This document shows positions 52,080-55,000 of a DNA stretch of 55,217 bases, one piece after another (position 1 is the first letter of the stretch; each line of letters starts with the position of its first letter). A program made the position numbers and the translations under genes. The notes below the pieces were generated by a model. It was given only the letters and a program-made list of their open reading frames with translations, did no database searches and had not been told where the DNA came from. Source of the stretch: a virus (lineage: Duplodnaviria > Caudoviricetes); the IMG/VR virus record IMGVR_UViG_3300012943_000008, positions 1 through 55,217 of that record; one strand, 5' to 3'.

Positions 52080-55000
52080 GCACGATCTTTGACCCGGCCC
52101 CGTCCTACCGTGTCGCCCAGCGCGCGGAAAATGCACGTCTCGCCCTCGATCTCCCACTGACGACGCTCAACACGCTGGGGCTCGGTATCCAGTCCGGATT
52201 TGTCGATAGCTTCGGCATCGGCACGGCGGTCAAGGATTTCTCGACGCCGCGCGGGGCGACGTCGCCGACGCTGCCGCCCGCCATCATGGGCAACCCGATC
52301 ACCGGCCCGCTGGTCACTGGCTATGAGGCCGCGCGGCGTCTCTTGGGTGCGCCGACGACGGGGCCGACGATCTCCGAAGAGGATTGGAAGAAGTCGGAAT
52401 TCTACCGCGACGGCGTGCCGTGGGATGCCGGCATGACGACGGATCGGGCGGCCGCGATTGCGACGCAATACGATATCCGCAAGGCCCGCGAATTCTTCGG
52501 GCAAAAGGACATGCTGCCGTCCCTGCTTGGGCAGTTCATCGGCGGCGCCGGCGATCCGATCAACTATGTGCCGATCTTCGGGCAGGCCGCTCGAGTCGCG
52601 GCAACGACGCGGTTCGGCGTGATCGCCGGGCACGGCCTGATCGGGGCGAGCGAAGCGGCGATCAACACGGCGGTCTTTGGCGCCCTCACCACGCCCTTCC
52701 GCGGCGCCCTGGGCGAAGACGTGAGCTTCGAAGCGGCGATCAACAATATCGCCTTCTCAGCGATCGCCGGCGCGGTCTTTGGCGGCGGATTCGCGGCGGT
52801 TGGGCAAGTGGCATCCCGGCGAGCTCAACGGGCCGAAGCCGCGGTGCAAGAATCCATCCGGTCGCTGCGCAACATCGAAGCCTCGCGCGACGTGCTCAAC
52901 GACGCGATTTCGTCGATCGTCGAAACCGGCGACGTGCGCCTCTTGCCGAAGTCGAAGGCTGTGCTCGAGCGGATCACGGCCGATGCTGTCGATCGACAGC
53001 AAGCGGCCCGGGCGCTGGATACCGAAACCCGGGGCGTTGCCGGCACAAAGGCGGGCGAGGTCGCGATCGCGCCGTCGGGCGCCCGGATCGCGGTCCGGCC
53101 GGAAGTGGTCGAAATGTCGAGCCTCCGCCCCGCGACCGGCGCGCTCCAGGTCCGCGATCGCTCGATGAACAATGCGGCGAACGTGACGCAAATCGAGGAT
53201 ATCGCGATCAACCTCGATCCCGCGCGCCTCATGCCCAACGTCGACGCCTCCCAGGGCGCGCCGATCGTCGGGCCGGATGGTGTCGTCGACTCGGGCAACG
53301 GCCGCACCGCCGCGATCTCGCGCGCGTATGAAGCCTATCCGGAGAAGGCCGCGGCATATCGGCAAGCCCTGATCGACGCCGGCTATCCCGACGCCGCGAA
53401 CATGCAACAGCCGGTGCTTATTCAGCGCCGCGTGACGGAACTCTCCCCCGAAGCTCGAGCGCAGTTCAACGCCGATGCGAACGCGTCGACGACGGCGCGC
53501 ATGTCCGCGGTCGAAACGGCCGCCCTCGATCGCGCGGCGCTCACGGATTCGGTTATGGACGCCTACGCCGATGCGCCGGTGACGGCGGCCTCCAACCGGG
53601 GCTTTGTCGCCCGCTTCCTCGGCAACCTGCCGGCCAATGAGCGGCTTGCCCTGGTCGACCGGGACGGCGGCCTCTCGGCCGACGGCGCCCGCCGGATTGA
53701 GAACGCAATGGTGGCGGCCGCCTATGGCGACGTCGACGCCACGGTGATCCGCAAGTTCGCCGAAGCGACGGACGATAACACCCGCTCGATCGTGGGCGCG
53801 CTGGCCGACGTCGCCGGCAAGTGGATCGGCATGCGGCGCGCGATCACCCGGGGCGAGATCGACGCCGATTTCGACATGACGCCCGAACTCACCGAAGCGC
53901 TGCGTAAGCTGAGCGGATGGCGCGAACAGGCGGCCCGGGAAGGCCGACCGGTGTCGATCGTCATCAAGGAAGGGCTGGGGCAGGGCGACATGCTCGCCGG
54001 CGACGTGTCGGCGCCAACGCAATTGTTCGTCCGGTCGTTCTATGCGAGCGGGGAATTCACCCAGGCCGCTTCTCGTGAAACAATCGCGGGCCGGCTCAGC
54101 GATCTGATCAACTCGTCGATCGAGCTCGGCCAGCCCGATATGTTGGGCGAAGCCTACGCGGCGACAAAGTTGGGAGTGCTCAAGCGTGTCTATTCCGATA
54201 TCGAAACCGACTTTCTCGAAGCTGTCAGCCTTCGCACGGGCACTGACGATCTCGGCGGCACGGGAAGGGGACTTGGACCTCGCTCGGGTCGCCAAGGCGG
54301 TGCGGACGGCGCTGGCGGATACCGGCCCGGCCGAACTACTCCCGCCAGCCCCGCGGAACGTCGAGCCGCCACCCGCAACCTAAAGGATAGCGCGCCCACC
54401 CGCTCGATCGATGAGCTCTATGCGGTGGCCGATGGGCATCAAGCCGCGCTCGACGAGCTCGGCAAGACGCTCGGCGATTGGGTCAATCCCGGCCTCAAGG
54501 ATCGCGCCTCGGCGGAAACGAAGATGGCGCGCAAGGGGTACGAGTCGACTCGCGAATTGACCGATGTCGTGCGCGGCGGCTTCAAGGTCAAAACCCCTGC
54601 CGACGCCGAAGATATCATCGAAGCGCTGGCCCGCCGGTGGCGTGTGGTCGATGAGGGCTGGAACATCACCCAGGCCGGCTATTTCGACCGCAAGGTGCTT
54701 GTGCAATTCGAAGACGGCACGATCGGCGAAGTGCAAATCTGGCATCCGGACATGCCGGCGGCGAAGAAGGCCGGCCATGCGCTCTATGAACAGATGCGCG
54801 ATCTCAAGCCGGACGATCCGCGGTTCATGGAACTGCTCGACGCGCAGAAGGCGCTTTACCTCGAGGCGGTCGCCAAGTCCTCGGACGACTGGCTCCCGGT
54901 GATCTCGAGGCTGGTCGACGAAATGCCGGGCGGCAAGCCGGCCTCGGGGAACGCCTCTTCGAACGCTGCCGGCGAAAGCTTGGTCCCGGAGTCGATGATC

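Follow-up and report, generated by a model that had tools for sequence, protein, structure and literature searches.

The window analysed here, a single stretch of 55,217 nucleotides (IMG/VR record IMGVR_UViG_3300012943_000008), carries near its 3' end the gene for a large virion-associated polyvalent protein, in which a DdrB-like ParB module is followed by a linker rich in glycine, arginine and proline and then by a domain resembling the RelA/SpoT homologue Tas1. The DNA specifying this linker contains, in the +1 frame relative to the large gene (hereafter the host gene), a second, small open reading frame (ORF) with its own start and stop codons. Comparison of the two frames across related phages indicates that this nested ORF is very probably a real coding frame maintained by selection. 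The features of the locus, in window coordinates, are the following:

54186..54383, + strand: nested +1-frame gene of 65 codons plus TAA, with a GTG start; in the host frame the same DNA encodes the Gly/Arg/Pro-rich linker.
54173..54176, + strand: core GGAG of the Shine-Dalgarno (SD) element (GGGAG from 54172), 9 nt before the nested start, identified from the sequence.
54204..54323, + strand: conserved core of the nested protein, residues 7-46, predicted to form a helical hairpin (helices 7-27 and 30-46) from an eight-sequence alignment and AlphaFold2.
54324..54380, + strand: variable proline-rich tail of the nested protein, whose length differs by locus, giving totals of 49-66 residues (alignment; predicted local distance difference test score, pLDDT, of 57-65).
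52076..55217, running past the window end and finishing in 3-323, + strand: host gene, encoding the 1113-residue virion polyvalent protein P0001 (ORF list, a 100% identical protein match and the overlap of the window ends).
53078..53431, + strand: DdrB-like ParB domain of the host protein (Pfam PF18763, E 1.3e-29).
53861..54130, + strand: all-helical end of the ParB module, P0001 residues 596-685, the predicted docking surface (co-fold interface and an all-alpha model).
54377..54904, + strand: Tas1-like RelA/SpoT-homologue domain of the host protein, 3' of the linker (six-sequence profile against PDB).

The nested ORF begins with GTG at 54186-54188, ends with TAA at 54381-54383 and is preceded, across a 9-nt spacer, by GGGAG at 54172-54176. 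Its translation reads MSIPISKPTFSKLSAFARALTISAAREGDLDLARVAKAVRTAL..., and the host frame across the same DNA reads ...GGTGRGLGPRSGRQGGADGAGG.... Thus, a complete +1 ORF with start and stop lies wholly inside the 1113-residue host ORF, whose downstream domains remain conserved in the host frame, i.e., the architecture of an embedded gene. An earlier reading made from the letters of the window (hereafter the sequence-only reading) had already pointed to such a gene, and the ribosome-binding site, the GTG start, the +1 ORF and both peptides that it quoted are all present where it placed them. It had further remarked that the host-frame linker uses codons rare in this genome. The codons in question, GGA, AGG, CTT, ACT, CCT and CGA, do occur there, and their frequencies in a 7170-codon training set from this phage are 2.6-6.3 per 1000 as against 59.6 for GGC. 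A frame-specific plot of the GC content at third codon positions (GC3), suggested in that reading as a check, agrees with it: the host GC3 is 0.60 at 54209-54388 compared with 0.80 for the whole gene, and the GC content at host first positions, which are the third positions of the +1 frame, rises in the same segment to 0.77. Likewise, under a codon-usage model trained on 7170 codons from this phage, the +1 frame is favoured by likelihood only in the segments 54209-54358 and 54254-54403 out of 28 covering 53849-55213, in keeping with the assertion that its codons are the more typical ones.

A protein search recovered 69 homologues of the host region, approximately 27 of which extend from the ParB end through the linker into the downstream domain. 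Among these homologues the host-frame linker is the least conserved part of the protein, and in the most distant of them it is much shorter. DNA was available for eight distinct loci of this clade, namely the window, L002, L007, L034, L033, L008, L010 and L011, with duplicate records merged (L002 with L006, L026 and L032; L010 with L036; L011 with L035). A homologous +1 ORF of 49-66 codons occupies the same site in all eight, at host-protein identities to the window of 46-67%, and the encoded peptides share the motif K-x-T-x-S-x-L...A-L...G-x-L-x-L-x-R-I-A-K-A. A profile built from six of the nested peptides recovered the other two, from L034 with an E-value of 5.8e-19 and from L033 with one of 3.8e-13. 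The ORF, its start and its SD element are kept in all eight loci, an outcome on which the sequence-only reading had made its own proposal depend. A frameshift error in sequencing or assembly was considered and rejected, as both frames, the start and the stop are common to eight independent assemblies.

The pattern of substitution in the two frames likewise speaks for coding. Over the gap-free 40-codon stretch of the alignment, only the host and the +1 frames are open in all eight loci, the remaining four frames being interrupted by stops in 2-8 of them. Across the eight loci the +1 peptide is the best conserved, with a mean identity of 0.47 versus 0.28 for the host frame and a mean BLOSUM62 score per site of 2.05 versus 0.97. 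Differences at the first, second and third positions of the +1 frame number 302, 203 and 357, respectively, such that its second position varies least; this order (3 > 1 > 2) means that the synonymous position of the host frame is the least variable of the three. When sliding 46-codon segments were scanned along the whole host alignment for the ratio of differences at host position 3 to those at host position 1, values below 1 were obtained in two of 41 segments for all six loci (0.81 and 0.73), in two of 43 for the near clade (0.84 and 0.54) and in two of 40 for the far clade (0.75 and 0.64), and in each case both segments lay over the nested ORF; outside it the ratio ranged from 1.0 to 4.9. 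A finer scan of five loci with 30-codon segments placed six of 108 below 1, five of them consecutive and over the ORF and the sixth borderline at 0.96. This last segment (52217-52306) is isolated, falls in a poorly aligned, variable N-terminal stretch and is probably noise. As a positive control, the same inversion (ratios of 0.59-0.72) appears at 51917-52079, where the host frame, taken from stop to stop, runs over the 3' end of the preceding M15-peptidase gene, whose own reading frame is a different one and is correctly reported by the test.

Estimates of selection are of a piece with the periodicity. The median ratio of nonsynonymous to synonymous changes (pN/pS, from Nei-Gojobori proportions) over 28 pairs is 0.70 in the +1 frame, 1.39 in the host frame and 0.98 in the +2 frame; the +1 value is below the host value in 26 of these pairs, and the two others, one a tie and one a reversal, both involve L033. 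Conversely, given the nested protein, the host frame would be free of stops by chance with a probability of only 0.05-0.44 per locus, and its being open in all eight indicates that the segment is truly dual-coding. Conservation, periodicity and pN/pS therefore strongly support the earlier suggestion of a real overlapping +1 gene, of which the Gly/Arg-rich linker is a shadow.

The start signals of the nested ORF bear on how it would be translated. In the alignment the start codons of all eight loci coincide (that of L033 lies one codon further from the conserved lysine), four being GTG and four ATG. The GTG starts fall on Arg-Val (CGT GTC) in the host frame, the ATG starts on Asn-Ala or Tyr-Ala (AAT or TAT, then GCx); among the +1 codons of the host genes, ATG accounts for just 2-4% and GTG for 0.5-2%. 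The nested GTG requires that the host arginine codon be CGT, and this codon is kept in all four near-clade loci even though just 4-10% of the CGN codons in these genes are CGT. Further, GGAG is present 9-10 nt 5' of the start in all eight loci and persists across a Gly-to-Glu change in the host frame, being carried by the glycine codon GGA plus a G in five loci and by a G plus the glutamate codon GAG in three. These observations point away from frameshifting and towards independent initiation, which we consider quite probable from the aligned loci.

The competing mode of translation would be a programmed +1 (or -2) frameshift near 54186, ending at 54383, which would give a truncated isoform of the ParB module with a C-terminal hairpin packed on the preceding helices, and in which GGAG would act as a frameshift stimulator and not as a ribosome-binding site. 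Such intramolecular packing is geometrically plausible in that the docking site predicted below (host residues 596-685) lies just ~20 residues before the start of the +1 peptide; an SD-like element is situated upstream, and the window, L010, L011, L033 and L034 have no +1 stop over many codons preceding the start. However, a frameshift product would have no need of a start codon, and a canonical one is nonetheless retained at this point of the alignment in each of the eight, across the host residue pairs R-V, N-A and Y-A, and in the near clade through a rare CGT codon. The spacing of 9-10 nt is that of initiation, and in three of the eight loci (L002, L007 and L008) the +1 frame is closed by a stop just 1-4 codons ahead of the start, which leaves almost no room for an upstream shift site. 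No host-frame stop or other obvious pause element was seen at the site, in which a formal search for slippery sequences was not made. A frameshift is accordingly judged to be very unlikely.

Against the interpretation of the ORF as a gene stand several points that concern the frame itself. With the host protein held fixed and synonymous codons drawn at random, the +1 frame would be open by chance with a probability of 0.39-0.86, and the same host gene contains a chance +1 ORF of 315 codons (52384-53331), which encodes Arg-rich nonsense. Purifying selection on the +1 frame is modest (pN/pS of 0.32-0.94), with the L033 pairs failing to separate the frames. The first ~13 nested codons overlap a conserved motif of the host frame (D-I/L-E-T-D-F-L-E-A in the near clade and N-L-F-T-P in the far clade), so that conservation in this part cannot be assigned to one frame. 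Additionally, the loci number only eight and fall into two or three clades, so that the pairwise counts are not independent, and all of them derive from uncultured metagenomic phages. What raises the finding above chance is hence the comparative evidence and not the open +1 frame alone.

The abundance of long chance ORFs in this gene, together with the ease with which the +1 frame opens, is what would be anticipated if there were no +1 product at all, i.e., if the ORF were a chance off-frame reading of a GC-rich gene and the conservation stemmed from the host frame, an RNA structure or a DNA site. Nevertheless, an RNA or DNA element would not yield three-base periodicity in the +1 phase, and it would result neither in a pN/pS below 1 in the +1 frame only, nor in genome-typical codon usage in that frame, nor in the conservation of a start codon and an SD element that depend on rare host codons. 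Of the two peptides, that of the +1 frame is the better conserved, and a search against Rfam returned no match near threshold, its two sub-threshold hits being chance matches of at best 19.3 bits against a gathering score of 50. This explanation therefore strikes us as scarcely credible. A search for sigma-70-like promoters found none, and the one terminator-like site detected lies on the minus strand and is within chance expectation.

The genomic setting of the host gene is that of a virion protein. The window represents a podovirus-like phage genome of ~55 kb, circularly permuted, with terminase, portal/adaptor, tail tubular and internal-virion genes. The host-protein residues NDVSMTGNL...GKSED are encoded at both of its ends, and this repetition of 55100-55217 at 1-122 identifies the record as a circularly permuted or terminally redundant assembly. 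The stop of the host gene follows ...AACVMG, and its true 3' end thus lies in window 3-323; its start is probably the GTG at 52076, in a 4-nt overlap with the upstream stop. The neighbouring genes encode an internal virion protein with an M15 peptidase (49065-52079) and a virion structural protein of the family phrog_684 (418-3039).

Within the host protein, PF18763 is the sole domain that Pfam finds, matching at 103.2 bits against a cut-off of 27.6 over residues 344-461 of the ORF counted from 52049. For the downstream domain Pfam gives no RelA_SpoT match, and a profile of six sequences compared with PDB matches Tas1 (6ox6) with an E-value of 4.7e-12, along with a weak match to the small alarmone synthetase SaSAS (E 0.49). 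The labels that the sequence-only reading had attached to the two flanking domains, ParB-like and RelA/SpoT, are hence sound. A score for PF18763 above the gathering threshold, the fusion to a Tas1-like C-terminal domain and the virion-gene neighbours place the host gene among the DdrB-ParB polyvalent proteins. Among phage-type polyvalent proteins, according to the survey by Iyer et al. 2017 (PMC5512222) that defined it, DdrB-ParB serves as a hub domain, and it is predicted there to be a DNase regulated by nucleoside triphosphates (NTPs).

The nested protein itself is modelled by AlphaFold2, from the eight-sequence alignment, as a helical hairpin with a mean pLDDT of 80.7 and core blocks at 94-96. 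Pfam contains no family matching any of six nested peptides at E-values up to 10, the best match in PHROGs has an E-value of 0.038 and belongs to a family of unknown function, and Foldseek against PDB gave no match at E <= 0.001 either for the hairpin or for a 250-residue helical region of the host protein; the ESM Atlas furnished no usable match for the nested protein. A profile search of 1.84 billion representative proteins produced nine matches, six of which begin with the nested peptide at residue 1. The other three (P0074, P0076 and P0078) were dropped as spurious, being repeat proteins with multiple short partial matches. A word-indexed protein search with the peptide profile returned only P0072.

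One of the six called proteins, P0075 (208 residues, on a 17,182-bp contig), has a first 48 residues homologous to the nested peptide, followed by ~160 ordinary-looking residues without a Pfam family, and going by this sequence the small gene may exist elsewhere in a longer or free-standing form. Scans of viral contigs with the peptide alignment and with P0075 added nothing new; of the scans of genome contigs, the first found no relative and the second only distant ParB proteins. From these searches the nested gene appears to be new both as a family and in its setting.

An indication of a possible function comes from co-folding. The ParB region (P0001 residues 310-705, with a 14-row alignment), the Tas1-like domain (six rows) and the nested protein (eight rows) were folded together, with the last as the scored partner. 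The resulting score was 0.76 (0.76, 0.78 and 0.76 in the individual runs), as compared with 0.00 for the best of three controls, in one of which the ParB region was replaced. The mark used is reached by 58 of 80 solved complexes and by two of 110 mismatched pairs, a calibration that is only rough for shallow alignments of our own making and for a three-chain job and that to this extent counts against the prediction. Agreement between the runs extends to at least 72% of contacts, and the partner pLDDT is at least 69. Every confident contact is between nested residues 5-42 and host residues 596-685, i.e., the helical part of the ParB module encoded directly upstream of the nested gene. Folded alone, the helical region is all-alpha, with the blocks of the contact region mostly at pLDDT 49-75 and lowest (39-54) in the last third; this low confidence would be compatible with stabilisation by a partner. 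The model thus lends support to binding at the helical region of the ParB module without showing it, and we consider such binding to be somewhat better than an even prospect. As regards the proposal in the sequence-only reading that the product be co-folded with each flanking domain, the confident contacts fell on the ParB-side helical region, and on the Tas1-like side no confident contact was listed; an unlisted contact is uncertain and has been counted neither for nor against.

The distribution of the modules downstream of the nested gene is informative in the same regard. In the window, L002, L007 and L033 the nested gene is followed by a Tas1-like domain. In L010 (6206-8635) it is followed instead by ART-PolyVal, an ADP-ribosyltransferase (E 1.2e-23), and in L011 (6146-8095) by a weak match to the same family, at 25.5 bits below the Pfam cut-off of 31.2; in L008 no module was recognised. 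The nested gene thus goes with the ParB module and not with both of its neighbours. The extreme C-terminal tail of the host protein (...SQSKN...DMQEP...AARVGK...) is common to all relatives despite the differing module after the nested gene, and this alignment suggests that the middle effector is exchanged like a cassette. Separately, a free-standing gene of 289 residues in L003 (2704-3573; also in L004 and L005) consists of the Tas1-like domain alone, with its own Gly-rich N-terminal stretch and without a ParB module, which makes this effector domain a mobile module.

The sequence-only reading had gone further in proposing a general design, in which both enzyme-like domains would have a separate embedded ORF after them. 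This part of it is not supported here: among the 108 thirty-codon segments of the host gene there is no second signal of this kind, and after the RelA/SpoT-like domain no inverted periodicity is seen up to 55216. At 54884-55078 the codon likelihood of the +2 frame does rise, to -3.95 per codon; it stays below that of the host frame (-3.5 to -3.6), and the periodicity there is normal, with ratios of 1.3-1.5. The retention of the nested gene across differing downstream modules, together with its absence from three loci (L027, L037 and L038, at 36-38% identity) that possess both the ParB and the Tas1-like domains, argues against any such symmetric arrangement.

The same distribution bears on the possibility that the nested protein neutralises the Tas1-like domain, regarded as a toxin of the (p)ppApp-synthetase type, acting as its immunity protein or antitoxin and protecting the producing cell much as Tis1 does against Tas1. 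In favour are the homology of the downstream domain to Tas1, an interbacterial toxin, and the small immunity genes that usually lie next to toxin domains. However, the nested gene is present in L008, L010 and L011, where a motif scan found no Tas1-like domain, and it is missing from the three loci just named, which do have one; further, in L003-L005 the free-standing Tas1-like gene is without any peptide-profile match at an E-value below 10. An immunity function is hence highly improbable.

A different possibility is that the nested gene is real and its product unconnected with the host protein. Such a product might be a helical dimer that binds nucleic acids, or a small factor for anti-defence or host takeover, its gene being simply lodged in a tolerant linker of a late gene. 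Small helical phage proteins without a family are common; the hairpin resembles no known partner-binding fold; and the occurrence of the peptide as the N-terminus of the longer P0075 suggests a life outside the linker. The three relatives with ParB and Tas1-like domains and no nested gene indicate in turn that the big protein works alone. On the other hand, the gene keeps its position immediately 3' of the ParB module even as the effector beyond it varies between Tas1-like, ART-PolyVal and unrecognised versions, and the co-fold passed by a wide margin over its controls (0.76 versus 0.00), including the one with the ParB region replaced. This leaves an unrelated product rather unlikely, more so than not by a clear measure.

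Further points tell against the explanation favoured below, in addition to the frame-level reservations above. In L027, L037 and L038 the linkers are short or Ala-rich and the +1 frames are interrupted or consist of Arg-rich nonsense, so that the nested gene, absent in these loci in spite of the presence of both domains, is not essential to either the ParB or the Tas1-like module. No nested peptide was found in GenBank phages by tblastn with P0075 and the L010 peptide. Five of the six called proteins come from contigs of 407-1166 bp, on which there was no intact host frame for the gene caller to choose. Lastly, given that neither Pfam, PHROGs and the Atlas nor fold comparison gave a match, the functional assignment depends on one co-fold.

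Having weighed these points, we favour as the likely explanation a genuine gene that overlaps, in the +1 frame, the linker region of a virion-associated polyvalent effector gene just after its DdrB-ParB module; the product of this small gene would most plausibly be a cis partner of the big protein. The nested gene would be translated from its own SD element and GTG (ATG in the more distant relatives), with the host frame of the same DNA also being translated, without stops, into a disordered connector. Its product, of ~50-65 residues, would comprise a conserved first ~46 residues folded as an alpha-helical hairpin and then a variable, proline-rich tail. As a cis-encoded partner it would bind the helical subdomain encoded immediately upstream (P0001 residues ~596-685), and from there could chaperone, cap or regulate the ParB module during synthesis and packaging of the effector. 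A role specifically as chaperone or inhibitor can be put forward only tentatively and is, if anything, doubtful. The linker frame would be the younger or less constrained of the two readings, its odd codons and its Gly/Arg/Pro composition presumably being dictated by the small gene. More speculatively, the dedicated partner, made from the same messenger RNA, might load onto the unfolded helical end of the ParB module, keep the injected DNase/NTPase-type module silent or competent for packaging and be shed on ejection, with linkers of this sort being genes for module-specific helpers in general; we regard this wider scheme as unlikely, somewhat less probable than an unrelated product.

Comparable gene arrangements are known from other systems. 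In the IncQ plasmids RSF1010/R1162, mobB is nested out of frame in mobA/repB and encodes a small accessory protein that assists a large multidomain protein; this is a plasmid relaxase system, not a phage virion effector, and it is not homologous to the nested gene. A parallel in phages is the Rz1 gene of lambda, which, according to PMC6139136, is embedded in the +1 frame of Rz, with the products forming a complex and the shared DNA falling in a flexible region of the larger protein. Like Rz1, the nested gene is a complete small +1-frame gene inside a larger phage gene on the same strand, situated in a flexible region and overlooked by gene callers. Unlike it, the nested gene encodes a soluble-looking helical hairpin in a virion/effector gene, whereas Rz1 is an outer-membrane lipoprotein with a lipobox cysteine, encoded in a lysis cassette, and the two proteins are related neither in sequence nor in fold. 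None of the eight nested peptides contains a cysteine, and the neighbouring genes encode virion and internal-virion proteins; the absence of both a lipobox cysteine and a lysis context means that the nested protein is not a spanin. An origin of embedded genes through stop-codon read-through across a formerly separate downstream gene is also sketched in PMC6139136, and by analogy the same kind of read-through could explain the linker that contains the nested gene.

With respect to polyvalent proteins, the host protein resembles the P1 DdrB class in its PF18763 domain, its late virion-gene context and its fusion to interchangeable effectors, here of the RelA/SpoT type, and it is ~29% identical to the P1-type DdrB over the ParB region. 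The P1 gene iddB (phage P1, NC_005856; L001 3348-3746), whose annotated function is unknown, was examined as a possible equivalent of the nested gene and rejected, since it runs antisense to ddrB, within the part that matches the ParB region. In the main text of the survey of polyvalent proteins (PMC5512222) the words 'overlapping' and 'frameshift' occur 0 times, and the passage with 'nested' concerns a hairpin structure. Judged by titles and the openings of abstracts, the literature that we found holds no nested genes in polyvalent proteins of this kind.

Polyvalent virion proteins have been read as single polypeptides, and their linkers as meaningless; at this locus the linker is a second gene, with selection acting in both frames. 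Gene callers are blind to it; in a collection of 15 billion proteins, five of the six called versions come from fragments too short to contain the host frame. Should the contact predicted by co-folding exist, the large protein would possess an obligate small partner, which would need to be co-expressed in biochemical or structural work on DdrB-ParB proteins. The locus also offers a clean example of dual coding in a double-stranded DNA phage, in which the protein is structured in the embedded frame and disordered in the host frame, and it fits the idea that multidomain effectors may arise by read-through of a small intervening gene.

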